Shown here: one piece after another, positions 6,000 to 43,921 of the stretch
Position numbering within the stretch: the first letter of the stretch is position 1
Layout: each line of letters opens with the position of its first letter
From: Planctomycetota bacterium
GTDB taxonomy: Bacteria > Planctomycetota > JAJSAM01 > JAJVHW01
Assembly: GCA_965248445.1 (NCBI GenBank)
Contig: CBDFJG010000003.1
Span: 704,001 to 768,000 of the forward strand
Length of the DNA: 64,000 bases
Reading direction: 5' to 3'
Translations under genes and position numbers: made by a program
Notes under the pieces: generated by a model
What the model saw: the letters and a program-made list of their open reading frames with translations, nothing else
The model's database searches: none
What the model was told of the DNA's origin: nothing

Positions 6000-7511
6000 T
6001 CAGTCTCGGCGGAACCGCGAACTGACCGCGCCCAGGAGGGTGGTGACGTCGCTCCGCGTGATTGCCCCGGTGAGCGGCGAGGCGCCGAGGAACACCACCG
6101 AGTAGACCGCGGAACCGGCCACGACCCGCGCGAAGCGTCCCCAGCCGTCGACCCAGTCCATCTGCATCGCGAAGTGCGTCGCGAGCCAGGCGGCTCCCGC
6201 GGTGATCAGGAGGCGGAGCAGGGCGCCCCAGTCGAGGAGCGAGCCGATCCCGACGTCGAGGTGCCGGGCAGCCAGCCACGAGCCGAGTAGCCAGTTGGCG
6301 GCCAGCGTTCCGAGCACCATCGCGGGGGCGGCCCCCGCCCAGCCGACGGTCGGCAGCAGAATCGCGAGCAGCGTCCCCGACAGCAGCAGGTTGGATACCG
6401 CGACCCACGTGGTGGCCTTCGCCGCGCCCGTGTTCTCCATCAGGACCTGCGGCAGGAAGATGCGCACGAGCATCCCGGCGGTGAACCACTGGAAGACGGG
6501 CACCGACTCGGCGAACTTCTCGGGGTAGATCAGGAGGAACAGGTCTTCGGCGACCGCTTCGACCGCCCCCACGATCGGCACCGTCAGCACCGCGATCATG
6601 CGGCACGTACGCCGCCACATGCCCAGGAGCGTCTCGCGACGGCCGCCCGCGTGCAGCACCGAGATCTCGGGGGCGGACAGCGACAGCATCGTGAACGCGA
6701 GGGCCCCGACCACCGGCGGCTCCATCGCGCCGCGCAGGTAGCTGCTCTTCGCGGCCTCGCCGAACAGGAGCGGGACTGCGAAGCCGTCCATACGGATCGC
6801 GAGCAAGCTGATGGCTGACGCCGCCATCACCGGGAGGGCGAAGCCGGCCAGATCGCGCAACGACGGCGAGGCGGACGCGGATCCGGACGGCGCAATGGGC
6901 AGCAGCATGCCGCCCGCGACGACGATCGCCTGAACCGTCGTTGCCGCGAGGAGGCCGCGCAGGCACCACACCAGCCTCTCGCTCTCGGGAGCGAACGCCA
7001 GCGCGCCGCCGATCGCGGTGAACATGACGAACGCCACGGCGACGATCACGTATCCCCATCCGCGCCGCACACCGCGAGCGAGCAACACCTGTTCGCCGAT
7101 CGCGTAGGGGAACGACACACCGATGATCGTGGCGATCAGCGCTCGGTGCTCGAGCAGCCGGACGTCGTCCGGATCCAACGATGCCAGCACGGAGGGGACG
7201 AGCGCGATCAACGCGAACGCGAGCAGGCCGGTTCCGAGGATCACCCCTGCGACGCTGCGCATAAGCCACGTCGGCCGCTCCGTCCGCGGCAGGAAGTAGA
7301 CGACGAGCTTCCCGAGCGGCGCAGCCAGAAGCACCGGCACGACGGACGAGAGGAACGTGACGTGCATGTACGTCCCGTAGACTTCGTGCGTCAGGATGCG
7401 CGAGAGCGGCATCGAGAGCAGGAAGACGACGGCCATCTGCACCGTGCGCGCCGCCGTGATGAAGGCGGCTGCCGACGCCAGGCTGGTCCGCTCTTCCCGC
7501 TTGCCGCTCAT
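6000..7511 (-). CDS. Oligosaccharide flippase (Wzx/MOP family)
   Basis: 503 aa with many hydrophobic segments, SRILTHEVYGTY near the N-terminus, adjacent to a glycosyltransferase. Confidence 0.75.
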   Translation of the reverse strand: MSGKREERTSLASAAAFITAARTVQMAVVFLLSMPLSRILTHEVYGTYMHVTFLSSVVPVLLAAPLGKLVVYFLPRTERPTWLMRSVAGVILGTGLLAFALIALVPSVLASLDPDDVRLLEHRALIATIIGVSFPYAIGEQVLLARGVRRGWGYVIVAVAFVMFTAIGGALAFAPESERLVWCLRGLLAATTVQAIVVAGGMLLPIAPSGSASASPSLRDLAGFALPVMAASAISLLAIRMDGFAVPLLFGEAAKSSYLRGAMEPPVVGALAFTMLSLSAPEISVLHAGGRRETLLGMWRRTCRMIAVLTVPIVGAVEAVAEDLFLLIYPEKFAESVPVFQWFTAGMLVRIFLPQVLMENTGAAKATTWVAVSNLLLSGTLLAILLPTVGWAGAAPAMVLGTLAANWLLGSWLAARHLDVGIGSLLDWGALLRLLITAGAAWLATHFAMQMDWVDGWGRFARVVAGSAVYSVVFLGASPLTGAITRSDVTTLLGAVSSRFRRD

Positions 7512-7566
7512 TCCGAGTTCATCGACCTAACCCGCATCGGGCAATGAACCCTGTAGCTATGTGTCG

Positions 7567-8598
7567 CTACTCGGTGGGGACCAGCGGTTCGGGCTGGGCT
7601 GCGTCGGTCCCCACAGCGTCGAGGAAGGCAGCCACCAGGCTCCGGCTGGCCGCAGCGATGGCCTCGGGACCCTCGGCCACGACCTGCCCGCCGGCCATGG
7701 AGGGGTGCCCTCCGCCTGATCCGCGACCGCCGGCCATGAGCTGCTCCATGACCGCGCCCGCGTCGGCTTCCTCGTCACGAGTGCGGAACGAGACGTAGAG
7801 CGTCCCCTTGTGATCGCCGGTGATGCAGGTCCATTTCGCGCAGTCCGCGCGCAGCAGGTAGTCGGCCATCTCCGGGACCATCTCGGGGACGCGCACGGTG
7901 CCGAGTTCCGACGTGATGATGTCGCCCACGAGTTGCGCGCCGTCGACCGCGTGCTTCACGTCCTGGAAGTAGCCCCGCGGGACGCACTCATCCTCGATGC
8001 GTGCGAGGCACTTGCGGTCGATGAGCTTCTCGAGTTCGCGGTACACGGCGACATCGGTCAACGTCGTGTCGCGCACGAGGTCGCGCGTCTCGCTCTTGAT
8101 TCCGTAGAACAGCGCCGTGGCGAGATCGGTGGGTATGGGGATCGCCTTCGCGAGAAGCATCTCCCCCACCAGCGTCGACGTTGCCCCGTAGCCCGGTTCG
8201 ATGATCGCCACCTCGGCCCCGGCGGAGGCCTCTCTGGCCGGGTGGTGGTCAATCACGACGGTCGGCACAAAGCCCGGCGGGAACGATGTGTAGTTCGTGC
8301 CCGGCTGCGTGTCGCACACGGCAGTGAAGTCGTAGTCGTCGTAATCGATGAGCGGTGCCGGCATGAGGGGCACACCCAGTTCGCGCACCATCGCCCGATT
8401 CTCGGAGCGTCCGATGATGCCCCCGAACGCGATGACGGCGTCGTGCCCGGTGTAGCGCTGCACCAGGTGCCGCACCGCAAGGGCGCAGGCGATGGAGTCC
8501 GGGTCCGGGTTGTTGTGGGTCTGGACGAGGAAGCGCTTGCGGCCCTCGAAGGCCGCCACGATCCGATCCAGCCGTTTCGCCGGCTCCTCGACGTCCAT
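7567..8598 (-). CDS. DHH/DHHA1-family phosphoesterase (NrnA-like)
   Basis: HNNPDPDSIA, DTQP, IDHH and GGGHPSMAGG motifs. Confidence 0.88.
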   Translation of the reverse strand: MDVEEPAKRLDRIVAAFEGRKRFLVQTHNNPDPDSIACALAVRHLVQRYTGHDAVIAFGGIIGRSENRAMVRELGVPLMPAPLIDYDDYDFTAVCDTQPGTNYTSFPPGFVPTVVIDHHPAREASAGAEVAIIEPGYGATSTLVGEMLLAKAIPIPTDLATALFYGIKSETRDLVRDTTLTDVAVYRELEKLIDRKCLARIEDECVPRGYFQDVKHAVDGAQLVGDIITSELGTVRVPEMVPEMADYLLRADCAKWTCITGDHKGTLYVSFRTRDEEADAGAVMEQLMAGGRGSGGGHPSMAGGQVVAEGPEAIAAASRSLVAAFLDAVGTDAAQPEPLVPTE

Positions 8599-8981
8599 CA
8601 GGCGTCCCCGGTCGGTCGCTCCGTGCCGGACGCCTGCTTGTAGCCGAGCGCCTTGACGATGTGCAGGACCTCGCTCCAGGTCGGGAACGGGCGGCTGTGC
8701 TTCGTCTTGTACGCGTTGATCGCGTTGACGAACTCGAGCTCGTCGGGTGCCAGGGGGTACTCATTGATCCGGCGCTCGGTGCCGCGGTAGAGGGGCGCGA
8801 CCGTCGTCCGCTTGCGGCGGTCCGAGGACCTCCGGTCTCCCGCCCGGCGCTCCACGCCTGCCGGCGGCTTGGTGCCCGCCCTCCGGTCCGTGCCGTCGCG
8901 GCGCGATCCCTTGCGGCGGTCCCGCGGGTCCGGAATCGCAGATGCCTGCTCGTCTTGCAGCTGCTCGTCGGTCTCGTCCAT
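8598..8981 (-). CDS. Conserved hypothetical protein with Arg-rich DRR/ERR repeats
   Basis: Several DRR/ERR repeats, then a compact domain DELEFVNAINAYK...RPFPTWSEVL.IVKALGY; TGATG overlap with the DHH gene. Confidence 0.7.
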   Translation of the reverse strand: MDETDEQLQDEQASAIPDPRDRRKGSRRDGTDRRAGTKPPAGVERRAGDRRSSDRRKRTTVAPLYRGTERRINEYPLAPDELEFVNAINAYKTKHSRPFPTWSEVLHIVKALGYKQASGTERPTGDA

Positions 8982-9063
8982 CACGCTCGAAGCTATCACG
9001 ACCTGAGGTCACTGTCCCTCCCTCCGGGCGCCGACTTCACCAACACGCTGCTAGGCTGGAGGC

Positions 9064-10086
9064 GTGCCCGACGAAGACTCCCCCACCAGCCCCCTCGGAC
9101 GCGTCCTCAGGTTCTGGTCGCTGGTCCTTCGGGGCCCGGGACCTGGAGAGCGAGCCGGCCTGTACCGGAGTCTCGCCACGTTGCTGGACGCCGGATTCGG
9201 AGCGCGGGAGGCGACGGACCGCGTCAACTCGGGCGGCGCAGTGATGACGGCGCTGCGCGCCGCTGCGGCGGAGGGGCGGCGGCTCGCAGACGGTCTCGCC
9301 GACAGCGGTGACCGTGTGACCCCGGTCGAGGTCGCGCTGGTGGCGGCGGGCGAGCGGGGCGGCCAGGTCGTCCACGAACTGCGTCGCCTCGCGGATCGAA
9401 TGGACGTGGCGGTCGCAGCGCGGCGTCGGCTCTACGCCGCGCTGGCCTATCCGGTACTCGTCCTTCACGTAGCGCTTCTCCTGCCCACGATTCCGCTGGT
9501 CGGCATGTCCCAGGGCATGGGCGCCTGGTTGCGCACCGTCGTGCTCGGGCTGCTCGTGATCTGGGGCGTTCCGTTCCTGGCCGTGTCGTTCTACGCGGCG
9601 TTCCGAGACGATCCGGGCTGGTCCCGCTGGTTCTGCCGTATTCCCGCCGCGGGCCGTGCCATCCACACGTCGGCCGTGGCCCGCTTCGCGTGGACCTTCG
9701 CCTCGCTACACGACGCCGGCATCCTGCACGACGAGGCGGTGGCGATGTCCGGCCGCGCAGCGGGACTCGGATGGATGCGTCAGGAACTCGAGCAAGCGCC
9801 CGCGCGGCTCGCGGCCGGTGAGCCCATGCCTGCGGTGCTTGCGACGGTGCGGTCGCTGCCGGCGGACGTTCGCGACTTCATCTCGACGGGCGACGCGACG
9901 GGCACGTTGACCGAATCGATGACGCGCGCTGGGACCCTGTACGACGAACTGGCCGGCCGCGCCGCGACGGCAGCAGCCGTCGCCGGCGGAGCCGTGACGT
10001 ACATCCTGGCGGTGCTGGCCGTCGTCGGCATGGCGTTCGGCGTTTTCGCCAAGGTCTACGGACCGGTGTTCGAGATGCTCGACTGA
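9064..10086 (+). CDS. Type II secretion F / PilC-like inner-membrane platform protein
   Basis: Two T2SSF-like repeats (LATLLDAG...AAGERGG...ALAYP; FASLHDAG...TGDATG), each followed by TM segments. Confidence 0.8.
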   Translation: MPDEDSPTSPLGRVLRFWSLVLRGPGPGERAGLYRSLATLLDAGFGAREATDRVNSGGAVMTALRAAAAEGRRLADGLADSGDRVTPVEVALVAAGERGGQVVHELRRLADRMDVAVAARRRLYAALAYPVLVLHVALLLPTIPLVGMSQGMGAWLRTVVLGLLVIWGVPFLAVSFYAAFRDDPGWSRWFCRIPAAGRAIHTSAVARFAWTFASLHDAGILHDEAVAMSGRAAGLGWMRQELEQAPARLAAGEPMPAVLATVRSLPADVRDFISTGDATGTLTESMTRAGTLYDELAGRAATAAAVAGGAVTYILAVLAVVGMAFGVFAKVYGPVFEMLD

Positions 10087-10092
10087 CGCGGG

Positions 10093-11145
10093 TTACGCGC
10101 GGGCGATCGCCAGTTCGACCAGGACCTCGCACAGTTCTGCGAACGACATCCCCGCGTTGAGCGCGGATTTCGGGCTCAGGGACTCGGGGGTCATGCCGGG
10201 GATCGTGTTGGTCTCGAGAAACCACGGCACGCCGTCGTCGTCGCAGATGAAGTCGCTGCGCGACAGGCCGTCGCAACGCAGCACCCGATGCGCCGTGACC
10301 GACGCCGCCTGCACGCGCTCGCGGACGTCGTCCGGAATACGCGCCGGACAGATTTCGTCGCTGGCACCCTCGTACTTGGCCTCGAAGTCGAAGAACTCCC
10401 TCCCCCGCGGCACGATCTCAACGACGGGAAGGGCGCGCAGAGTGCCGCCGCTGTTGCCGAGGACGGGACACGAGACCTCGGTCCCCACGATGCGCTGCTC
10501 GATGAGCGCACGCCCGAATCCGTCCCTCGACGCGCCGTCCCCCAGCGCAATCTGCACGGCCGCGGGAAGGTCCACGGCCCGATCCACGAGCGTGATGCCG
10601 AACGAGGACCCGTCCTGGGCGGGCTTGACGACCCACGGACCGGTCACGCCCAGTTCTGTCAGACCGGGCGGCTCTACCAGGCCGGGGTCGGTCAGGTCGG
10701 TCAGCTCGTCGCCTCGCCCGACGCTTCGCCAGGCGGGCGTGCGGATGCCGTGGTGGCAGAGCACCTCTTTCGTGCGTTCCTTGTCCATCGCGAGCGCGCT
10801 GGCAGCGACACCCGAACCCGTGTACGGGATGCCCGCCGTCTCGAGGACACCCTGAACGGTGCCGTCCTCACCCCACGGGCCGTGCAGCGCCACGAAGACG
10901 GCGTCGACGTGGCCGCCGTGCTCGGCCACGCGGCGCAGGCCGGTCTCCGGCGCCTCGCCGGACGTGAGCAGCGGCGCCGCACCTCCGGGAAGGAGCCACC
11001 GGCCGTCCTGCTCGATCGTCACGGGCAGCACGTCGAGCCCCCGAGTTCCGAGTGCTTGCGACACGGCGGCGCCGCTCTTTCGCGAGATGCCGTGTTCGCG
11101 CGACGGCCCGCCCATCAGCACGGCGACGCGGCGCGGGACCTTCAT
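10093..11145 (-). CDS. ddl: D-alanine--D-alanine ligase
   Basis: VAVLMGGPSREH.IS..SG, ALHGPWGEDGTVQG, LAMDK, FDFEAKY and LETNTIPGMT motifs. Confidence 0.95.
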   Translation of the reverse strand: MKVPRRVAVLMGGPSREHGISRKSGAAVSQALGTRGLDVLPVTIEQDGRWLLPGGAAPLLTSGEAPETGLRRVAEHGGHVDAVFVALHGPWGEDGTVQGVLETAGIPYTGSGVAASALAMDKERTKEVLCHHGIRTPAWRSVGRGDELTDLTDPGLVEPPGLTELGVTGPWVVKPAQDGSSFGITLVDRAVDLPAAVQIALGDGASRDGFGRALIEQRIVGTEVSCPVLGNSGGTLRALPVVEIVPRGREFFDFEAKYEGASDEICPARIPDDVRERVQAASVTAHRVLRCDGLSRSDFICDDDGVPWFLETNTIPGMTPESLSPKSALNAGMSFAELCEVLVELAIARA

Positions 11146-12494
11146 GCGCGAGCGGGCAGCCCGTGCAGTGCGCGGAACGCGCGCTCGTCGGGAGCCTCGA
11201 GAGGATTGACCTCGGTCAGCCCTGTCGGCACCGGGAGCTCGGCGCGCGCGTACCAGCCGCGGAATGCCCGTACCAGCGCTTGACGGGCGGTCTCCGGGCT
11301 GTCCGCGCCCGCGGCGTTCTTGATGGGCGCGAACTCGGCGGCGCGATCGGTCTCGACGACCAACGCGCGGTCCGTGAACTGAAGCGCGTCGAACAGGAAC
11401 GTCTCGAGCTTCCAGGCGTTCGGTTGATCCGGCGTCACGGCACGACCTTCATCGTCCACGTACGGGACGATCTTCCGGGCCCGGTGGAGCGGCAGCCCGC
11501 GGCCTGCGATTTCGCGCGCGAATCCGAGATCGATCGCGTGGGCGGCGATGCTCCCCTGGCCGAAAACCAGCCGGTCGCCGTCGCGGCGCTGGGCGTCCTC
11601 CGCCGACAGCTCGCTGTACTCGACCACTTCGACGCGTCCGCCCCGGCGTGCGAACACACCGACGCGCTCCTCCGGCTGCGTTTTGGCGACGCTCTTGCTC
11701 GAGAGATGGCTGCGGCTGCTCGCATGGAGCCCGAGAAAGACCGGGTCGACCGGCTGCACGAGCGGATTGTCGACCTGTACGTAGCTGAGAGTCGTGACGC
11801 CGTGGTCGTCGAGCAGGTCGAGCAACTTCGCGTCCCGGAGTGCGCGGTACACGCCGCCGTGCCCGTTCGGAGCGGTGGCTATCCGGTCCTTCGCGGCGAG
11901 GAGCAGCTTCCCGTCATCGTCCACGCAGGGCAGCGTGCCCTGTACGGCAGTGCGCACCCACGTGGGGTCAAGTCCGAACCCGCCGTGCCAGTGCAGGAGA
12001 CGCTCGGTCTGCGCCGCCGTCGCATCCGACACCATGATGATGACGGGGATGCGGCGGCCGATGCGGCGCGTCCAGTGCGTCACCTTCTCCGAGATCCACT
12101 GCAGCAGGGGTTTCCCGGAAGTCGGCCCGCACGGCCACAGTCCCTTCGGTGCCTCGCTGCCAAGACGCGTGCCCTGCCCGCCTGCTGCGATCACCACGGC
12201 GACGCGCCCTTCGTTCAGCAGTTCGATCCCGTGTTCGTGAGCCTCGCGTCGCGCGGTCCGGCCCTCGTCATCGGACGGCAGGGCAGAGAGCGCGTCGCCC
12301 AGCGGCTCGAGCGCGCCGGTCGCTGTCGGCGTCTCCGGTGTCGCGAGGCAGGACAGATCCAGTGCACCGGCCTGAGCGACCAGTCCTCGCAGCGCGCCCT
12401 CGCCGATCTCGCCGCCGTACCGGAAGGCGTGCGACTGGCCGGCCTTCTCGAGGCGCTCGAGCACGTCGTTCCTCTGCAGGTTCCACTGCGTCAC
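11142..12494 (-). CDS. UDPGP-family (UAP1-like) UDP-N-acetylhexosamine/UDP-glucose pyrophosphorylase
   Basis: AAGGQGTRLG...PKG, PNGHGG, QVDNPL, VVEYSEL, KLETFLFD and EFAPIKN motifs; GTG 12494 preceded by GGGAGG. Confidence 0.88.
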   Translation of the reverse strand: MTQWNLQRNDVLERLEKAGQSHAFRYGGEIGEGALRGLVAQAGALDLSCLATPETPTATGALEPLGDALSALPSDDEGRTARREAHEHGIELLNEGRVAVVIAAGGQGTRLGSEAPKGLWPCGPTSGKPLLQWISEKVTHWTRRIGRRIPVIIMVSDATAAQTERLLHWHGGFGLDPTWVRTAVQGTLPCVDDDGKLLLAAKDRIATAPNGHGGVYRALRDAKLLDLLDDHGVTTLSYVQVDNPLVQPVDPVFLGLHASSRSHLSSKSVAKTQPEERVGVFARRGGRVEVVEYSELSAEDAQRRDGDRLVFGQGSIAAHAIDLGFAREIAGRGLPLHRARKIVPYVDDEGRAVTPDQPNAWKLETFLFDALQFTDRALVVETDRAAEFAPIKNAAGADSPETARQALVRAFRGWYARAELPVPTGLTEVNPLEAPDERAFRALHGLPARA

Positions 12495-12559
12495 CGCGAC
12501 CTCCCGAAAGCCCCGCTGCTCTGACTTGCGACGGGCCTGCGAATCTACCATCCGACGAT

Positions 12560-12605
12560 CTACGACCCGCTCTGGCTACGACCCACTCTGGCTACCACCC
12601 GCTCC
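12560..12605. repeat. Imperfect 16-bp tandem repeat x3
   Basis: CTACGACCCGCTCTGG / CTACGACCCACTCTGG / CTACCACCCGCTCC downstream of fabF. Confidence 0.7.
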
Positions 12606-12620
12606 GAGGCTGCTGTGCGC

Positions 12621-13856
12621 TCAGACGGCCGAGACGAGCAGCACGGCGTTGTGGCCGCCGAAGCCGAGGGAGTTGGACAGCGCATGGCGGACGTGCCGCT
12701 CGCGGGCGCCCTCGGTCACGTAGTCGAGGTCGCACTCCGGATCGGGTGTCTCGAGGTTGATCGTCGCGTGCACGCGGCCGTCCCGGATGGTCTGGGCGGT
12801 CACCACGAGTTCGACGGCGCCGGCGCCGCCCAGGAGGTGTCCCAGCATCGACTTCGTGGACGAGACCCACAGGCGGTCGGCGTGCTCGCCGAAGACCTCG
12901 CGGAGCGCGGCGGTCTCCAGGGGATCGTTCACCGGCGTCGAAGTCCCGTGCGCGTTGATGTAGTCGACCTCGGAGGAATCCACGCGCGCGTCGTCGAGCG
13001 CCATCCGCATCGCGGCCACTGCACCGCGTCCGCCCGGGGCCGGCGCCGTGATGTGGAACGCGTCCGCCGTCATCCCGAAGCCGGTGACCTCCGCGTAGAT
13101 CGTGGCGTCGCGACGCCTCGCGTGCTCGTACTCCTCGAACACGAGAGCCCCCGACCCCTCGCCCATGACGAACCCGTCGCGGTCCTTGTCGAACGGGCGG
13201 CTCGCACCCGCGGGATCGTCGTTGCGCGTGGACATGGCCCGCAGCGAGCAGAACCCGGCGATACCGAGGGGCGTGATGGTCGCCTCGGTGCCGCCGGTCA
13301 CCATGATGTCGGCGTCGCCGTGGCGCACCGAACGGAACGCGAGTCCCATCGCGTGGTTGGACGAAGCGCAGGCCGAGGCGGTCACGAAGTTCGGGCCCTG
13401 CAATCCGTGGCGCATCGAGATGCGGCCGGAGATCGCATTCATCATGATCTTCGGGATGAAGTGCGGGCTGACGCGGCGTGGGCCGCGCTCGATCAGCAGT
13501 TCCTTCGTGGCCTCGATGTCGGTGAGCCCGCCGATGCCGACGCCGAACGTGCAACCGGCGCGGTAGGACTCGAACCCGCTCTCGGTCAAGCCGGAGTCGC
13601 GCAGCGCCTCGTCGGAGGCGACGATCCCGAACACCGTGAAGGGATCGAGCTTGCGCAGATCCTTCTTCTCGATGACCGAGCTCGCGTCGAAGCCCTTGAC
13701 CTCGGCAGCGATGTGGCACGCGTACTCCGACGCATCGAAGTGAGTGATGGGCGCGACCCCGGACTGCCCCTCGAGTAGGCGCGCCCACACGTCCTCGGCG
13801 TTGTGCCCGAGGGCGTTGATGCTCCCGACTCCGGTGATGACGACGCGTCGACTCAT
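12621..13856 (-). CDS. fabF: 3-oxoacyl-ACP synthase II
   Basis: RRVVITG, SACAS, SRPFDKDRDGFVMGEG, INAHGTST, KSMLGHLLG and SNSLGFGGHN motifs. Confidence 0.97.
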   Translation of the reverse strand: MSRRVVITGVGSINALGHNAEDVWARLLEGQSGVAPITHFDASEYACHIAAEVKGFDASSVIEKKDLRKLDPFTVFGIVASDEALRDSGLTESGFESYRAGCTFGVGIGGLTDIEATKELLIERGPRRVSPHFIPKIMMNAISGRISMRHGLQGPNFVTASACASSNHAMGLAFRSVRHGDADIMVTGGTEATITPLGIAGFCSLRAMSTRNDDPAGASRPFDKDRDGFVMGEGSGALVFEEYEHARRRDATIYAEVTGFGMTADAFHITAPAPGGRGAVAAMRMALDDARVDSSEVDYINAHGTSTPVNDPLETAALREVFGEHADRLWVSSTKSMLGHLLGGAGAVELVVTAQTIRDGRVHATINLETPDPECDLDYVTEGARERHVRHALSNSLGFGGHNAVLLVSAV

Positions 13857-13972
13857 CGGCTGTTTCCTGCGCGCGGCGAACCGGATCGCGGCGCGCGGAG
13901 GCTCTCCTCAACGATGAACATTCGCGCGCGGATCGTCTCCCGTCAGAGACGGAGGAAGGCCGCGCCCCACTG

Positions 13973-14218
13973 TCAGGTGTGGGATTCGATGTACGTGATG
14001 GCGTCGCCGACGGTCTGGATCTTCTCCGCGTCCTCGTCCGGGATGTTGAGGTCGAATTCGTCCTCGAACTCCATCACGAGTTCCACGGTGTCCAGGCTGT
14101 CGGCACCGAGGTCGTTGATGAACGACGTCTCGTCGGTGATCTTGTCGCGGGAAGCGCCCATCTGCTCGCAGACGATGTCGGTCACTTTTTCCCGGATGTT
14201 GTTCTTGTCATCCGCCAC
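13973..14218 (-). CDS. acpP: Acyl carrier protein
   Basis: [23 protein letters not shown] 14218 with AGGAG RBS. Confidence 0.97.
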
Positions 14219-14425
14219 GGGCGAATCTCCTGAGTTAATCACGTTCGAGAAGTGGACGGACCCGCGCCGAAAGGCACCACTCGCCCCACTCGCGTCGCAC
14301 TCGCTCGTCGCTCGCAACGGCGCGGTCAGGCCATGTCCTTGTATCGCCCCTCGCTCTCGGCCGCCGAATTCATTGGGAGGGTCTCCCAGGCTCGAATCGA
14401 CGTGTCGTGACGCGACGTCGCGCAG

Positions 14426-15172
14426 TCAGACCATGCCTCCGTCCACCGCGAGCACCTGACCTGTCACATACGCGGCGCGTTGCGAGAGCAGGAAGGTGAC
14501 CGCGGGCGCGATCTCCGCGGCCGTCGCCGGACGCCCTAGCGGGACTCCGGCGAGCATCGCGATCCGTGCGTTCTCCGGCAGTTCCGACGTCATGTCGGTT
14601 TCGACGAAGCCGGGCGCCACGGCGTTGCAGCGCACGCCCCGTCCACCGAGTTCCTTGGCCACGGACTTCGTGAATCCGATGAGCCCGGCCTTGCTGGCGG
14701 CGTAGTTCGCCTGGCCCGCGTTGCCGGTCAGGCCGACGACGCTCGTGATGTTGACGATCGCCCCACCGCGCGCCTTCGTGAACGTCCGCGTGAGTGCACG
14801 CACGAAGTAGAACGCGCCCTTCAGGTTGACGTCGATGACGCGATCGATGTCCTCGTCCTTCATGCGCATGAGGAGTCCGTCCCGCGTGATGCCCGCGTTG
14901 TTGACGAGTCCGTGGCATGCACCGTGTGCGTCCAGCGCAGACTTGACCGCGGTGCTCACAGATTCCGAGTTGCCTGCGTCTACTGCGTGGCGCGTCACAT
15001 TCGGTGCGCCCAGTTCGCGACATGCAGACTCGGTTCCAGACGTGCCGTCTTCGGACGTTGCGAACAGAGCGAGCGACGCGCCCTGACGCGCGCACTCCTC
15101 GGCGATCGCACGACCGATCCCGCGCGAAGCGCCCGTGACGAACACGGTCTTGCCACCCAGTTCACCCGACAT
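14426..15172 (-). CDS. fabG: 3-oxoacyl-ACP reductase
   Basis: TGASRGIG, NNAGITRDGLLMRM, GNAGQANYAASK; fab operon context. Confidence 0.96.
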   Translation of the reverse strand: MSGELGGKTVFVTGASRGIGRAIAEECARQGASLALFATSEDGTSGTESACRELGAPNVTRHAVDAGNSESVSTAVKSALDAHGACHGLVNNAGITRDGLLMRMKDEDIDRVIDVNLKGAFYFVRALTRTFTKARGGAIVNITSVVGLTGNAGQANYAASKAGLIGFTKSVAKELGGRGVRCNAVAPGFVETDMTSELPENARIAMLAGVPLGRPATAAEIAPAVTFLLSQRAAYVTGQVLAVDGGMV

Positions 15173-15198
15173 CAGGTCCTCCTCCATGCGCCGTGGCG

Positions 15199-16140
15199 CT
15201 AGCTCAGATCCGCCGGCTCGCCGTACGTCCGCACCTTGATCGAGCGGTCGATCTTCCGCACGAACGCGGAGAGCGTCTTGCCGGGTCCCGGCTCCACGAA
15301 GTCGATCCCAGTGCCGACGGTCGCGGTGCCGATAGTCTCCATCGCGCCGCGCAGTGAGCGTTCGAACAAGACCGGCGAGACAACCTGCCGCTCGAGAGTT
15401 TCGCGGGCAGTCGCGCCGTCCGTTACCTCTGCGGCCGTGACGTTCGAGACCACGGGCACCGCCGGGTCCGCAAACTCGACCTCCGCGAGGTCGGCGGCGA
15501 GCCTGTCGGCCGCCGGTTGCATGACGGGTGAGTGAAACGCACCGGCCACGTTGAGCTCGACGACGCGACGGGCTCCGGCGTCGGTCAGCCGCTCGCAGGC
15601 CTGCACGAGCGCGCCGTTCTCGCCGCTCACGACCACCTGCCCGGGTGCATTCAGGTTGGCGACGACGACGACGCCGCCGCCAGCGCGCACCTCGCCACAG
15701 ATCTCCTCGACGCGCTCCGGGCTGAGCCCCATCACCGCGGCCATTCCCGACGGAGTCGCGTCCGACGCCTCCTGCATGTACTGGCCCCGCCGAGCGACCA
15801 GCCGGACCGCGTCCTCGAAGGAGAGCGTCCCCGCCAGGTGGTGCGCCGTGTACTCACCCAGACTGAGTCCGAGCAGGAGTCTGATCGCCGACCGGTCGAG
15901 CAAGCCCTCCTCCTCCAGCACGGCGACGATCGCGGCGGTACACGTCAGGATGGCGGGCTGGCAGACGTCCGTGCGGGCTACGTCCTCGTCCGTCCCCTCG
16001 AACACCGTCTTCGTCAGCGGCATCCCGAGGGCGTCGTCGGCGCGCCGGAACGTCTCGCGTGCGACCGGCCAGCGCTCGGCGAACTCGCGGCCCATACCCG
16101 CGAACTGAGCGCCCTGACCCGGGCAGAGGAGAACCGTCAT
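15199..16140 (-). CDS. fabD: Malonyl-CoA:ACP transacylase
   Basis: PGQGAQ, GLSLGEY, ANLNAPGQVVVSG and VAGAFHS motifs. Confidence 0.96.
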   Translation of the reverse strand: MTVLLCPGQGAQFAGMGREFAERWPVARETFRRADDALGMPLTKTVFEGTDEDVARTDVCQPAILTCTAAIVAVLEEEGLLDRSAIRLLLGLSLGEYTAHHLAGTLSFEDAVRLVARRGQYMQEASDATPSGMAAVMGLSPERVEEICGEVRAGGGVVVVANLNAPGQVVVSGENGALVQACERLTDAGARRVVELNVAGAFHSPVMQPAADRLAADLAEVEFADPAVPVVSNVTAAEVTDGATARETLERQVVSPVLFERSLRGAMETIGTATVGTGIDFVEPGPGKTLSAFVRKIDRSIKVRTYGEPADLS

Positions 16141-17171
16141 GCTGCGTCTTCTCCGTCGCCGCTGTCCGAGTCCTCGAGCGCGGCCAGTCCGTGCGCGATC
16201 CGCTCGTTGACTCCGTCCCGCACGTACGTGTCGGCGGCGGCGATCGCGTTTGCTATGGCCGACGCCGGACTGCGGCCGTGGCAGATCACGATGGCTCCTT
16301 CGTGCCCCATGAGCGGTGCTCCGCCGTACCGCGTGTAGTCAGTGCGGTGCCGCAGATCATCCAGGGCCTCGGTGACCGTGGCGTCGTCGCCGTTCCCGGC
16401 CGTCGCGGAGAGTCGGCCGAGCATGTGATGGACGAACGCGTCGAGGAGCCCCTCGGAGGCCTTCAGGATCACATTTCCCACGAACCCCTCGCAGACGATC
16501 ACGTCCAGGTCACCGGCGAAGATCTGCTGGCCCTCGACGTTTCCGACGAAGTCGATGCCCGGCAGCCGGCCGAGCGCGTCGAATGCCTCGCGCATGCGCG
16601 GCTCGCCCTTCGCCTCCTCCTCGCCGATGGCGAGCAGTCCCGCTCGCGGCACGGCCGTACCCACCACGGCCCGCGTGTACTCCGCGCCCATCACGGCGTA
16701 TTGAACAAGGTCGCCGGGGCGCGCCTGCGGGTTGGCGCCTACGTCGATGATGACACAGTGGCCGGTTCGGGTCGGGAACGGGGCTGCGATCCCGGCCCGC
16801 CGGACGCCCGGCAGCCGCGGCAGACCGAACGACGCCGCGGCCACAACGCCGCCGGTGTTTCCCGCGGACACGAGCGCGTCCGCCCGGCCGTCGGCCACCA
16901 GCTGCACGGCCCGGGCGATCGACGTGTCGTCCTTGCGCCGCACCGCCTCGACGGGACTCTCGTGCATCTCGACGACGTCGTCGGCATGGACGACAGAGAG
17001 GCCGGTAGGAAGACCGTCCGGCAGCTCGGCGAGGATCGCCGGCTCGGCGCCGACGAGGATCACACTCAGTCCCGGCGTCCGTTCGAGAGCCGCCAGCGCG
17101 CCGGCTACGCAGACGATCGGCGCGAAGTCGCCCCCCATCGCGTCCACCGCCACACGCGTATTGCTGGGCAT
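16137..17171 (-). CDS. plsX: Phosphate acyltransferase
   Basis: VAVDAMGGDFAP, VSAGNTG, DVGAN, GNVEG and YGGAPLMG motifs. Confidence 0.96.
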   Translation of the reverse strand: MPSNTRVAVDAMGGDFAPIVCVAGALAALERTPGLSVILVGAEPAILAELPDGLPTGLSVVHADDVVEMHESPVEAVRRKDDTSIARAVQLVADGRADALVSAGNTGGVVAAASFGLPRLPGVRRAGIAAPFPTRTGHCVIIDVGANPQARPGDLVQYAVMGAEYTRAVVGTAVPRAGLLAIGEEEAKGEPRMREAFDALGRLPGIDFVGNVEGQQIFAGDLDVIVCEGFVGNVILKASEGLLDAFVHHMLGRLSATAGNGDDATVTEALDDLRHRTDYTRYGGAPLMGHEGAIVICHGRSPASAIANAIAAADTYVRDGVNERIAHGLAALEDSDSGDGEDAA

Positions 17172-17206
17172 ATCGAGCGCGTCTCAGCCGGTCGGCCGGC
17201 GTGGCG

Positions 17207-17416
17207 CTACACCCCGTCGGTGAAGAGGACCTGGCGAGTCGACGAGGACTTGCCCTTGCGACGCACCCGGTAGTGTCCGCACGTCGGGCAGATCGAGTGC
17301 GGCGGCGTGGCCTGGCCGCAGTTGCCGCAGGGCACGAGGTGCGCCGGGGTCAGGTTGTCGTGGGTGCGCCTCTTGCGCTTCTTCGACTTCGACGTCTTGA
17401 ACTTCGGGACGGCCAC
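17207..17416 (-). CDS. rpmF: 50S ribosomal protein L32 (zinc-ribbon type)
   Basis: MAVPK.KTSKSK...CGNCG....PHSICPTCG.Y; AAGGAGG RBS. Confidence 0.95.
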   Translation of the reverse strand: MAVPKFKTSKSKKRKRRTHDNLTPAHLVPCGNCGQATPPHSICPTCGHYRVRRKGKSSSTRQVLFTDGV

Positions 17417-17566
17417 CGGCGCCTCCTTGCCCACTGCGGTGCCCACCCGGTTGCGATCCGGGTGTGCGATCGGGGCGAACCCCGGACTCTAGCGAGGCCC
17501 GGAACTCCCCCGACGTTCTTTCGGGGCTGCCCCCAAGCCCTGGCACAGGGCCGCCTCAGCCTCGGA

Positions 17567-20230
<2,664 letters not shown>

Positions 20231-28109: not shown

Positions 28110-28195
28110 TGGTGCGGAGGGGGGGAGTCGAACCCCCACGTCCGTAAGGACACTAGATTCTGAGTCTAGCGCGTCTGCCATTCCGCCACCCCCGC
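28110..28195 (-). tRNA. tRNA-Leu (anticodon CAG)
   Basis: GCGGGGG acceptor strand, anticodon arm CTAGA-CTCAGAA-TCTAG, long variable arm, GTTCGA T-loop, encoded CCA. Confidence 0.96.
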
Positions 28196-30516: not shown

Positions 30517-30879
30517 GGGGGCGACCGGAATCGACCGGGCGATTCGTCTTCTCGGGTGGCGCGTCGAGGTTCCAGGTGGCCTCGTTAAACCCTGGACCAC
30601 CTTTAGGTGCCAATCACACCTATTCTCTCGCTGCCTAGTTGAACTAGATCCAGCGACGCCCTCAGCCGGCATGCCCGTGGTCGGCGGATGGGCGCCGATT
30701 TACGGGCTGGTCCTCCGTGGTGCCGATCTGCGGAGGGCGAGATCAAACGGTCGGCTGGTCCCCCTGTGAGCGTGTCGCTCTGCGTGCAAGGGGACGAGAC
30801 CCAAATCGAGCGACTACACGCGTAGAAGCCCGAGAAGCAGCGCCACGGGACGGGGGTTCGAATCCCCCCGCCTCCACCA
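30517..30879 (+). ncRNA. ssrA: tmRNA
   Basis: 5' GGGGGCG pairs with 3' CGCCTCC-A-CCA (G3:U); T-arm GGGGGTTCGAATCCCCC; tag reading frame ANHTYSLAA* at 30609-30638; smpB nearby. Confidence 0.95.
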
Positions 30880-31247: not shown

Positions 31248-32747
31248 GTAACCGTTCACCCCTTCGTCGCGAGCCAGGATCCAGATCGTTCGGCCATCGG
31301 TCGATCAAGAGGTTGTGGGCGAGCGGCAGGACGAGGATCTGCGGGCGATGGTCGAGGGCCTTCTGGCCTGGATCGAGGAGCTGGAGCGTCGCGAAGCGAA
31401 GCATCTGCGCCGCATCGACGAGCTCGAGTCGCGTCTGAAGCGTGACTCCCGCAACAGCTCGAGGCCTCCGTCGTCGGACCCGGCGTGGTCCAAGCGCCGT
31501 CGCGGCCGAAGGCCGCGTAGCGGTCGCCAGCAGGGCGGACAGCCGGGCCATGAGGGCACGGCGCGCGAGCTGGTGGATCCGTCCAACGTCGATGAGACCA
31601 AGGAGCACCGTCCCGACCTCTGCGACGCGTGCGGACACGACGATCTCGAGCAGGGCATCGGCGATCCGTACCGGCACCAGGTGACGGTGCTCCCGCGCGT
31701 GCTCGTCACGGTGCGGGAGCACCGGCTGCACAAGGCGCGGTGCCGGCGCTGTCGTGCGGTCACGACGGCGGTCCTGCCCGATGGCGTGCCGACCGGGGCC
31801 TTCGGTCCGCGGCTGACCACACTTGCCGGCGCGCTGCGCGGCGTGTACCGCGTGAGCGTGCGGGAGACGCAGCGGCTGCTCGGTGAGATCTTCGGTGTGA
31901 AGATGTCGCTGGGCAAGATCAGCGACTGTGAGCGTCGGCTCAGTGACGCTCTGCACTCGTCGTACCTCGAAGCCCTCGGGGCAGTCCGCACGTCGCTGCG
32001 AGCCAACGTGGACGAGACGTCGTGGAAGGAACGGGGCCGGGTGTGCTGGCTGTGGGCGGCGGAGAGCGAGCACGCCACAGCCTTCGGGATCGATCGCCGC
32101 CGCAGTGCCAAGGCGAAAGGGCGGCTGATCGGGCGGCGCTTCGGTGGCACGGTGATCAGCGACCGGATGGGTGCCTACGAGTCACACCCACTTGCCCGCC
32201 GCCAGCTCTGCTGGGCGCACATCGAGCGCGCCTTCCGTGCGCTGGCCGAAGGCCCGCGAGAACATCGCCGCTTCGGCAACAAGGGCGTCATGATCGCGCA
32301 GTCGGTCATGCGCAGCTACCGGCTCTTCGGTGAGCACGGCGACCGTGACCGGCTGCAAGGCGAAGCCGCTGTGCTGCGCGGACGGCTCGAGCGACTGATC
32401 GCGAACGACGACTCGGCTCTGGCCAACCATCTGCGCCCCCGCGTGGTCGCCCTCTTCACCTATGCGCGGACCCAGGACGTGAGTCCGACGAACAACGCCG
32501 CCGAGCGCGCGGTCCGCAAAGCGGTGCTCTGGCGCAAGGGCTCCTTCGGAAGCCAGTCCGCTCGCGGACTCCGCTTCGCCGAGCGCGTGTTGACCGCCGC
32601 GGCCACGCTGCGACGCCGTGGCGACCAAGTCTTCGACTTCCTCGCCGACTCGGTCGCCGCGCACCTCACCGGCGCCGACCCGCCCGTCATGGTCCCGCTG
32701 CCCCTCGCACGCTGAGGCTCACACGCTGTCAAGGGGTGAACGGTTAC
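31248..32747 (+). mobile_element. IS66-family element, single-ORF (ISBst12-like), 1500 bp
   Basis: Perfect 17-bp IRs GTAACCGTTCACCCCTT; no accessory tnpA/tnpB ORFs; no target duplication visible. Confidence 0.92.
31315..32715 (+). CDS. IS66-family transposase
   Basis: DSRNSSRPPSSD, GGQPGHEG, CxxC pairs, VDETSW, ISDR, QLCWAHI and PTNNAAERAVR motifs. Confidence 0.93.
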   Translation: MGERQDEDLRAMVEGLLAWIEELERREAKHLRRIDELESRLKRDSRNSSRPPSSDPAWSKRRRGRRPRSGRQQGGQPGHEGTARELVDPSNVDETKEHRPDLCDACGHDDLEQGIGDPYRHQVTVLPRVLVTVREHRLHKARCRRCRAVTTAVLPDGVPTGAFGPRLTTLAGALRGVYRVSVRETQRLLGEIFGVKMSLGKISDCERRLSDALHSSYLEALGAVRTSLRANVDETSWKERGRVCWLWAAESEHATAFGIDRRRSAKAKGRLIGRRFGGTVISDRMGAYESHPLARRQLCWAHIERAFRALAEGPREHRRFGNKGVMIAQSVMRSYRLFGEHGDRDRLQGEAAVLRGRLERLIANDDSALANHLRPRVVALFTYARTQDVSPTNNAAERAVRKAVLWRKGSFGSQSARGLRFAERVLTAAATLRRRGDQVFDFLADSVAAHLTGADPPVMVPLPLAR

Positions 32748-32926
32748 GAATCGCGGAGGGCGCGGCCGTTGCCGAGAAGCCGCCGTGCCCGCAGTTCCTC
32801 CGTCGCGGTCGAGTACCGCGACGGAGGAGGAGTCCGACCGCGCATGGCAGGAGGGCCCGGCGATCGGAGCGACACACACGCGGGCGGGGCGGCGGGGCAG
32901 CGCCCCGCCCCTGCCAGCGGGCCCGC

Positions 32927-33062
32927 ACTGGTTGCGTGAATGCGGAGGGCGCGGGGGTTGCGCAGCAAGCGCCGTGACCACAGCGTCCGGAGGACGCGTA
33001 GGAGGGAGACACTGATGTGTCGATTGGTCCGTCGATCGCTCCGCGATCGACGGACCAATCGC

Positions 33063-33070
<8 letters not shown>
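32927..33070. repeat. Dispersed structured non-coding element, copy A, with 58-nt terminal hairpin
   Basis: Homologous to 42727-42880; scaffold ACTGGTTGCGTGA...GCGGAGGGCG...CGTGACC.CAG...GGAGGGAGACAC; perfect 19-bp stem 33021-33039/33043-33061. Confidence 0.8.
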
Positions 33071-34730
<1,660 letters not shown>

Positions 34731-42726: not shown

Positions 42727-42880
42727 ACTGGTTGCGTGAGAGCGGAGGGCGGGACGCTTGCAGCGCAAGCGTCGTGACCGCAGCCCTCCGTAGCGGTCGG
42801 AGACCGCGTGGGAGGGAAACACCAGCAAGGCTGATTTCACGCGGATCGTTACGCGATCCGCGTGAAGTCAGCGCTTGCTG
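42727..42880. repeat. Dispersed structured non-coding element, copy B, with 58-nt terminal hairpin
   Basis: Homologous to 32927-33070; scaffold ends GGAGGGAAACAC; hairpin 42823-42880 overlaps the rpsI stop. Confidence 0.8.
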
Positions 42881-43485
42881 AACTGGAAGCCGCGACGGGC
42901 GCCGCGACGACCGTACTTCTTGCGCTCCTTGATCCGCGCATCGCGCGAGAGGAGCCCGTTGTCGCGCAGGGCGCGCTCGGTCTCTGGAGCCAGCACGATC
43001 ACGGCACGCGCGACGCCGAGCGCGACGGCGCCGGCCTGTCCGGACGTGCCGCCGCCGTGCACGTTCACCCAGATGTCGTACTCACGGCGAACGCCGGCCT
43101 GGTCGAGCGCGGCGGTCGCGGTGTGACGGTCCGCGACGTGCGAGAAGTACTCGTCGAGCGGCTTGCCGTTGATCATGAAGTTGCCGCCACCGGGGAAGGT
43201 GCGAACGCGGGCGGACGACGACTTGCGGCGGCCCAGAGTCCAGAGCGGGTTGCGCGCCGAGTAGTCCGTCGGACGGACGAAGACCTCGGCTACCGGCTCT
43301 GCGGCAACGGGTTCTGCGGCAACGGGTTCTGCGGCAACGGGCTCTACCGCGACGGGCGCGGTCTCGGCCGCGGTCGCTTCCGCCGGCGCTTCCGCGGGCG
43401 CCTCGACGGCCGGCTCCGTGGCCTGATCTGCGGACTCTGCGTTCGCGGCGGGGGCGGTCTCGGGTGTGACGGCGTCGTCGGTCAT
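42868..43485 (-). CDS. rpsI: 30S ribosomal protein S9 with acidic N-terminal extension
   Basis: GRRKSSSARV, GGGTSGQAGA and RDARIKERKKYG..GARRGFQFSKR motifs. Confidence 0.96.
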   Translation of the reverse strand: MTDDAVTPETAPAANAESADQATEPAVEAPAEAPAEATAAETAPVAVEPVAAEPVAAEPVAAEPVAEVFVRPTDYSARNPLWTLGRRKSSSARVRTFPGGGNFMINGKPLDEYFSHVADRHTATAALDQAGVRREYDIWVNVHGGGTSGQAGAVALGVARAVIVLAPETERALRDNGLLSRDARIKERKKYGRRGARRGFQFSKR

Positions 43486-43489
43486 GGCT

Positions 43490-43921
43490 CTAGGAAAGCT
43501 CCAACGGCTGTGGCTGCTGCGCGGCGTGCGGGTGGTCCGGGCCTGCATAGACCTTCAACTTGCGGATCATCTGGCGGCCCAGTCGCGTCTTCGGGAGCAT
43601 GCGACGGATCGCAAGCGTGATGACGTCCTCGGGCTTCTTGGCGAGCACGTCGGCGACGCTCCGCTCCTTGAGCCCGCCCGGGTAGCCAGAGTAGCGGTAG
43701 TACTTCTTGTCCGCCGCCTTGCGGCCGGACAGACGCACCTTCTCGGCGTTCACGATCACGACGAAGTCCCCGGTGTCGAGGTGCGGCGTATACGTCGCCC
43801 GGTGCTTCCCCATGAGGACGCGCGCGATGCGGGACGCGAGGCGGCCGACGACGCGGTCGTCCGCATCGATCACCCACCACCGGCGCTCCAGTTCGCCCTT
43901 CTTCGGCATGTACGTGCGCAT
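43490..43921 (-). CDS. rplM: 50S ribosomal protein L13
   Basis: [29 protein letters not shown] and HPHAAQQP motifs. Confidence 0.97.

Follow-up and report, generated by a model that had tools for sequence, protein, structure and literature searches.

Two loci of the 64,000-nt window analysed here (positions 704,001 to 768,000 of contig CBDFJG010000003.1, from a Planctomycetota bacterium) raise the question of how a non-coding repeat comes to carry, in one arm of its terminal hairpin, an inverted copy of the 3′ end of the gene next to it. The loci (32927-33070 and 42727-42880) have a common scaffold and a terminal hairpin, which on re-examination agreed base for base with the original prediction (Table 1). 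In copy 1 the stem runs for 7 bp, passes a 1x2 internal loop and continues with 19 perfect bp, 7 of the paired nucleotides lying inside the coding sequence of a pilB-like gene (T2SSE); in copy 2 the 7 bp are followed by a 1-nt bulge, the stem holds one T.G wobble, and 12 of the last 13 nt of rpsI (Ribosomal_S9) are paired. Both hairpins are spanned by short-read contigs with 0 differing letters and are thus not assembly fold-backs, these contigs coming from the same sample and hence not being independent biological support. No joint across copy 1 or copy 2 (marking excision or insertion) was found among the listed contigs of one sample.

Table 1. Parts of the two studied copies, their host genes and the RAYT-type loci discussed in the text (window positions, unless a locus is named).
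Feature	Position	Strand	Remarks
Partial second scaffold: modules 1 and 2, without anchor or terminal hairpin; abuts an IS66 right end	32748..32827	+	nhmmer match C3:736748-736827, IS66 end
REP palindrome of the GTAG type (GCAG variant), lying upstream of copy 1 in the opposite orientation to the scaffold	32887..32914	-	REP scan: 48 in genome, reversed-pattern control 7
Copy 1 leader, conserved	32927..32947	+	alignments
Copy 1 module 1: 31-nt hairpin unit, conserved mismatches, GC-GNA-GC tip	32948..32978	+	
Copy 1 module 2 hairpin, shortened by loss of the 5′ outer arm	32983..32997	+	
Copy 1 anchor, conserved; the variable arm abuts it	33001..33012	+	
Copy 1 far arm (21 nt), inverted flank copy; first 7 nt copy the pilB-like coding end	33013..33033	+	
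Copy 1 apex of terminal hairpin (module 3); loop is GNA on the gene-sense strand	33034..33048	+	
Copy 1 gene-side arm (22 nt); 33063-33070 are the stop and last codons of the pilB-like gene	33049..33070	+	
Host gene of copy 1, PilB/GspE-type ATPase; C-terminus position same in 5/5 relatives	33063..34730	-	
Copy 2 leader, conserved	42727..42747	+	
Copy 2 module 1 hairpin unit	42748..42778	+	
Copy 2 module 2 hairpin: two stacked stems, GGA triloop	42784..42816	+	
Copy 2 anchor	42811..42822	+	
Copy 2 far arm; paired to 12 of the 13 final nt of rpsI and to 9 nt of the unit	42823..42843	+	
Copy 2 apex, terminal hairpin	42844..42858	+	
Copy 2 gene-side arm (22 nt); 42868-42880 are the rpsI stop and last codons	42859..42880	+	
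rpsI (ribosomal protein S9), host gene of copy 2; C-terminus conserved across phylum sample	42868..43548	-	
RAYT-like gene with C-terminal extension and perfect 36-nt flanking inverted repeats	L001:789-1942 (G000:C4:497022-498175)		
REPtron of another genome of the order; RAYT motifs NHIH, WQ, YIRDNP	L123 (G014:C365:1-2009)		

Two copies of the scaffold had been seen in the window; genome-wide (5.4 Mb) the search instead gave 75 matches by nhmmer (partial ones included) and 70 by a covariance model, that is, about 70-75 copies of an element of the dispersed, mobile type that had been proposed. What had been missed is its REP/BIME context. The modules keep a fixed order (inverted GTAG-type REP, leader, 31-nt unit or module 1, module 2, anchor, terminal hairpin), back-to-back and partial arrangements also occurring, and the terminal hairpin is built around another copy of the 31-nt unit, oriented like module 1. 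The apex, formerly read simply as conserved sequence, is conserved and is at the same time the tip of this unit, homologous to the first hairpin. Likewise, the 58-nt hairpin with its 21-nt arm and the net 1-nt bulge after 7 bp are both true of the two studied copies, but across the family the bulge is common rather than universal and most copies lack a clean 21-nt arm. Matches to the 31-nt unit were intergenic in 76/76 cases. A GTAG-type REP lies upstream of 30/70 copies (48 such REPs in the genome against 7 in the reversed-pattern control), and this module alone has a GTAG/GTGG head placed 0-2 nt before a paired stem of at least 7 nt, since module 2 forms only a 5-6 bp stem after its GTAG and the 31-nt unit lacks a GTAG/GTGG head. 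Neither terminal inverted repeats nor a direct target duplication were apparent among the scaffold matches. The Rfam check yielded only tRNA and tmRNA in the window, leaving the scaffold without a family, and eight loci searched at E values up to 1 returned a single chance match to an miRNA model, far below threshold. These RNA genes (tRNA, 28113-28195; tmRNA, 30517-30879) lie just upstream of an IS66 element (31315-32749) that abuts a partial copy of the repeat; a preference of IS66 for the repeat was nevertheless rejected, as only a few of the 49 IS66 right ends found genome-wide lie beside copies.

The copies are strongly biased towards gene ends: 64/70 end facing a 3′ end, which in 45 of these lies 47-68 nt away from the anchor, and the host spacers are convergent in 44/64 cases (14% background). 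Two of the 3′-end-facing copies sit at tRNA CCA ends (tRNA-Tyr and tRNA-Leu; G000:C2:297371 and C3:324614), at the same anchor distance as at stop codons. The stop context is skewed as well (TAG at 29/48 versus 33%; AC before the stop at 12/48 versus 11%, p 0.004), with CTAG enriched at stops beside copies, which suggests a target preference. The genes were called with our own codon model, in which single calls may err. Anchor and apex are separated by 27-29 nt in 47/67 copies. GC skew was too weak to orient the contigs for a replication-strand bias. In an alignment of 22 copies the scaffold stems covary (double changes in 11/24 pairs versus 0/500 shuffles), a pattern that fits RNA and single-stranded DNA alike and does not separate them. 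The loops of module 1 read GNA in 31/36 copies, and the terminal ones read GNR on the other strand in 12/23 and GNA in 5/23. GNA triloops are stable in DNA, and GC-GNA-GC folds into a stable mini-hairpin as DNA, pointing to single strands of DNA rather than to RNA.

By this anatomy the element behaves like a BIME mosaic with true GTAG REPs, and its locus-specific arm sets it apart from those described. As with the GTAG REPs and BIMEs described in excerpts of PMC3733652 and PMC2817692, we are dealing with high-copy, extragenic, GC-rich imperfect palindromes in modular mosaics; such REPs often supply the TAG stop and are known from Planctomycetes. In contrast to these, a single module here counts as a canonical GTAG REP, the REP rule excluding both module 2 and the 31-nt unit, and the terminal arm differs from locus to locus and reproduces coding sequence, a property absent from the same excerpts. 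Also close are the 'double foot' REPs of TnpA-Y1 subclass 2.4 (PMC6006769, in extract), in which a 5′ GTAG is closed by its own 3′ reverse complement, exactly as in some terminal hairpins here and in the related genome G005; the double feet have been explained by deletion inside a REP dimer, whereas the closing foot here varies by site and can run 7-15 nt into the gene. The RAYT-linked REPINs of Pseudomonas (partial texts of PMC3337134 and PMC3116915) also keep a hairpin while the arm sequence differs from copy to copy, yet their variability resides in the spacer between two conserved REPs, whereas here it lies outside the conserved tip and stems from the host flank. Membership of the REPINs was rejected, the two homologous units having the same orientation instead of an inverted one, and so was that of the CGTC REPs (unpaired CGTC head, 8-9 bp stem, CCA tail), since the GTCAC end of the unit is paired in a 14-bp imperfect stem with 3-nt loops. 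The anatomy of integron attC sites (7-bp outer stem, 5/6-nt loop) was considered too and discarded, as the copies show none of the conserved core triplets and have housekeeping genes as neighbours. A Rho-independent terminator was set aside as well, at least 6 T in the 11 nt after the hairpin (gene sense) being found in only 4/70 copies. A literature search (main texts, few subscription papers) found no description of flank-copied arms in a bacterial repeat family.

Flank-complementary arms had been expected in other copies, and they exist, in part of the family. The longest match between an arm and its own gene end averaged 4.86 nt, against 3.71 nt after permutation (0/2000; n=50, gene end 30-70 nt away), and the outer 7 nt were paired at 6 or more positions in 23/59 canonically spaced copies (2.4 in permutations, maximum 9), the other 36/59 falling short of a matched outer stem. 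The 23 matched copies carry 17 distinct heptamers, with a net asymmetry of +1 in 10, +2 in 9, 0 in 2 and +3 in 2; where a feature was called (20 copies), all 7 nt were genic in 5, 5 nt in 6 and none in 4. A scan independent of the scaffold recovered inverted copies of at least 11 nt within 70 nt at 9/3,890 gene ends (1.3 expected), 4 of them among the 53 element-proximal genes and 2 more being element copies by inspection. Inverted copies of 6-8 nt showed no genome-wide excess (1150 vs 1116; 106 vs 101), so that gene ends in general are not selected for them. The copies of coding sequence reach 15 nt, some of the longest being situated in an extra hairpin between gene and unit. One group of copies shares a nearly identical short arm together with the same ancestral AC-stop flank.

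The direction of copying was read from relatives. In nine genes picked for long matches the position of the stop is kept, and in 8/9 (the SurA-like gene excepted) so are the last residues, or nearly so (SSB, DDIPF-stop; Rho, LNLA/S; rpsI, FSKR-stop), while an inverted copy of at least 10 nt occurs at only 1/87 orthologous ends. Two more Tyr-stop ends are ancestral (6/6 and 3/3 relatives), and two other ends were too poorly conserved to judge the direction. C-termini that are unchanged in relatives mean that the arm was copied from the gene, as the protein constraint on rpsI had led the original prediction to propose; where the comparison of sequences permits a test, the gene is thus the template of the arm, and over the whole family a sizeable minority of copies have an arm copied from the flank.

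As for how the copying comes about, we favour, with moderate confidence, a roughly 70-copy REP/BIME-like mosaic at stop codons whose terminal arm is an inverted copy of the flank, rewritten at each site separately after arrival by template switching during replication (quasi-palindrome correction). A RAYT-type HUH enzyme, no longer present in the assembly, would have spread the modules in the form of single-stranded DNA hairpins. The GC-rich GC-GNA-GC tip would then fold in the nascent strand, allowing the polymerase to copy one arm off the other and to return roughly in register, by which the length of the arm would be kept and its sequence replaced. Copying would proceed both ways, but where the stem enters a gene only gene-to-arm events would survive selection, and events that overwrite the anchor would be lost; the two filters together would create the look of a target-derived guide. 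As RNA, the hairpins probably have the role that other REPs play where 3′ ends converge.

Template switching, as presented in parts of PMC7202029 and PMC8794818, makes and perfects hairpins and generates reverse-complement arms in one step. Here too the copies are reverse-complement ones and the stems are perfected either way: judged by two diagnostic mismatches of the 31-nt unit, terminal units were rewritten left from right in 3 cases, right from left in 3 and in mixed fashion in 4, and at least 13/14 positions were paired in 17/67 terminal units versus 3/60 module-1 units. Furthermore, arm sequence was independent of scaffold similarity (Mantel rho 0.07, p 0.10), the most similar scaffolds having unrelated arms. 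Hairpins perfected both ways and arms independent of the scaffold favour local template switching over guide-directed insertion; of the origins entertained in the original prediction, a template switch thus fits best. The guide-like function it proposed, on the other hand, was not supported, in view of the both-way perfection, the flat Mantel correlation, the 36/59 unmatched copies, a relative's copy that lacks the terminal hairpin and the DNA-type loops. Other observations run against template switching. In the Rho copy and two Tyr-stop genes a matched outer stem within ancestral coding sequence accompanies retained mismatches of the inner unit, although one fold-back from the tip would have erased these; the internal module-1 unit is seldom perfected; and the flank copies stop at the anchor or no more than ~2 nt from it, often with a 1-2 nt asymmetry, where random switching predicts less regularity. 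The excerpted sources treat the process as a mutational one, not as something that recurs throughout a repeat family and keeps its junction constant. The unperfected inner units, the fixed junction, the narrow anchor-to-apex length and the stop bias would be compatible with copying that starts from a RAYT nick at insertion or, with less likelihood, with guide-directed insertion.

Such priming would mean that the arm is made as the element inserts: single-stranded DNA would be nicked by a RAYT-type HUH enzyme, either at the stop-codon site or beside the anchor, and the freed 3′ end, bent back on itself at the GNA mini-hairpin, would be extended with the flank as template, which gives an inverted target duplication with a fixed junction. 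We consider this possible, though on the whole unlikely. It would account for the junction at the anchor with the narrow anchor-to-apex length, for an equally narrow variable slot in two other genera, and for the enrichment of CTAG/TAG at stops, given that E. coli TnpA-REP cuts at CT and leaves a free 3′-OH (PMC3479197, partial text). Against it stand the outer stems left unmatched in most canonically spaced copies, the gene-side arms that were rewritten from the far arm too, and the results for the enzyme itself: no cognate RAYT was found in the genome (assembly 92% complete), and 0/30 RAYT-like loci of the order are flanked by the unit itself.

The original prediction had seen no cognate enzyme in the window, and searches of the whole genome found none either, with no cognate RAYT and with no IS110 or RT at copies. 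The only Y1 match (in an assembly 92% complete), a RAYT-like protein of 337 aa that falls short of the family cut-off, is flanked by 36-nt inverted repeats unrelated to the REPs of the element; another repeat resembling these was seen next to an isolated hairpin unit at C4:721758. A RAYT gene flanked by its own inverted repeats is the TIR-associated arrangement in Di Nocera's terms. At the family cut-off no RAYT was found in any genome of the family or order, no TnpA was found linked to copies in this genome, and a regex search for class-3 or other HUH motifs in this genome returned none. Within the same order, G014 has a complete REPtron, in which a pair of inverted GTAG REPs encloses a short RAYT; the head of these REPs is the GTAGGGGCG also found in the REP module studied here. 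This RAYT, a candidate enzyme, had no tblastn match in the present, 92% complete assembly. A GxxExxY nuclease was rejected as mobiliser (0/8 family genomes), and so were IS110 (7 matches) and RT (1 match) as partners, none being at copies. The sole RT match (open frame of 457 aa; L355, G000:C3:1186907-1187569) is not beside a copy.

A combination of these ideas, which we regard as rather improbable, has a non-autonomous, HUH-mobilised family capture an inverted target copy at a fixed slot during insertion and afterwards use that slot as a self-rewriting DNA guide, as a natural counterpart of engineered IS608 that recurs across genera.

We are yet more doubtful of an explanation in which selection acts on the hairpin as RNA, at the 3′ ends of mRNAs (as an exonuclease block, an aid to termination or a self-masking of antisense read-through where genes converge), with the arm match arising via stepwise compensatory point changes. 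The convergent spacers, the stems that close over the stop codon in many copies and the covarying scaffold all agree with it, but the triloops are of the DNA-stable GNA type, a stepwise route hardly leads to exact 11-15 nt copies at six loci, gene ends have no general excess of 6-8 nt inverted copies, and a U-tract is lacking (mostly 3-5 T in 11 nt). REPs near stops are known to alter mRNA stability and translation (PMC12306157, in extract), as an RNA role would have it.

The arm could instead be a pre-existing DNA guide, the element inserting where the target matches it, in a natural form of the 3′-extension targeting engineered in IS608; to this we give little credence. The geometry fits, as in IS608 (excerpts of PMC5934647) the sequence 3′ of the hairpin foot is complementary to the 5′ flank of the target, over 8-13 nt, although there the pairing is engineered and set before insertion. 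The copy group with a shared short arm and AC-stop flank, and a matched slot of only 4-6 nt in G005, look guide-like too. Yet so many distinct heptamers among the matched copies, together with unique matches of 11-15 nt, need a source of new guides, and the most similar scaffolds bear unrelated arms. Lastly, that the scaffold is a guide-RNA gene (of the bridge-RNA or omega-RNA kind) whose variable segment targets the adjacent gene is very improbable, for although a conserved, covarying scaffold stands beside a variable segment of ~20 nt and the genome contains seven matches to IS110, pairing with its own complement would keep the segment locked in cis, Rfam has no match, the IS110 and RT loci are not at element copies, and the arm is missing from the copy of a relative.

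If template switching is all there is to it, stop-codon repeats would be strong template-switch hot spots; if the copying is driven by an enzyme and fixed by the anchor, it would amount to an undescribed insertion chemistry with a programmable slot. Either way, one genome offers dozens of natural, datable cases in which an arm was copied from a protein-constrained template, so that the copies themselves show which way the inverted copying went and how long its tracts were. This makes it testable how REP/BIME-type repeats keep their hairpins while the arms diverge, and whether RAYT nicks prime the copying of flanking DNA.

Related units were found in other genomes of the set (the class-level set comprising the same 17 genomes as the order), with matches above control in G005 (277 vs 24), G007 (49 vs 13) and G006 (41 vs 15), and not above control in G001 and G010. 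Regions examined numbered 58 from G005 and 22 from G007. In G005 the bases between unit and scaffold matched the local stop context over 3.14 nt versus 2.29 nt (p 0.0006; 21 stop-adjacent units of 96), with no match of 7 nt in the tested set and a separate 11-nt case at L278; in G007 matches of 12-14 nt occur at L290 and L291, the permutation (p 0.16) resting on 3 usable units only. Related units in two sister genera have such a flank-matching segment too. A metagenome contig of a 77%-identical relative has the REP and modules 1-2 but no terminal hairpin; the corresponding site of the genome studied here carries the REP alone, so that modules come and go, as in BIMEs. A scan of GTDB species contigs with exact patterns found nothing outside this genome, such patterns being too strict because G005 and G007 hold variants, and the covariance model gave 0 matches in 16 relatives among the 150 scored of 6,500-17,800 candidates per genome, which is not evidence of absence. 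The element sequence had no match in plasmid or phage collections, and four pattern matches in viral contigs were rejected, looking like chance or lone units.

Some arrangements in these genomes deserve mention on their own account. G005 has ~250 related units in tandem arrays with a spacing of 165-195 nt, mixed with GTAG REPs (e.g. L260, L315, L336), and units lie right behind the stops of six genes that also carry the element in the genome studied here. In G001 (L124, G001:C35:360200-360900) one matching hairpin unit is enclosed in a long tandem array of unrelated repeat units. In G010, which belongs to another family, the rpsI coding end recurs at L017 (G010:C5) as a 15-nt inverted copy tipped by a GAA mini-hairpin, and a pair of GTAG REPs comes directly after it.
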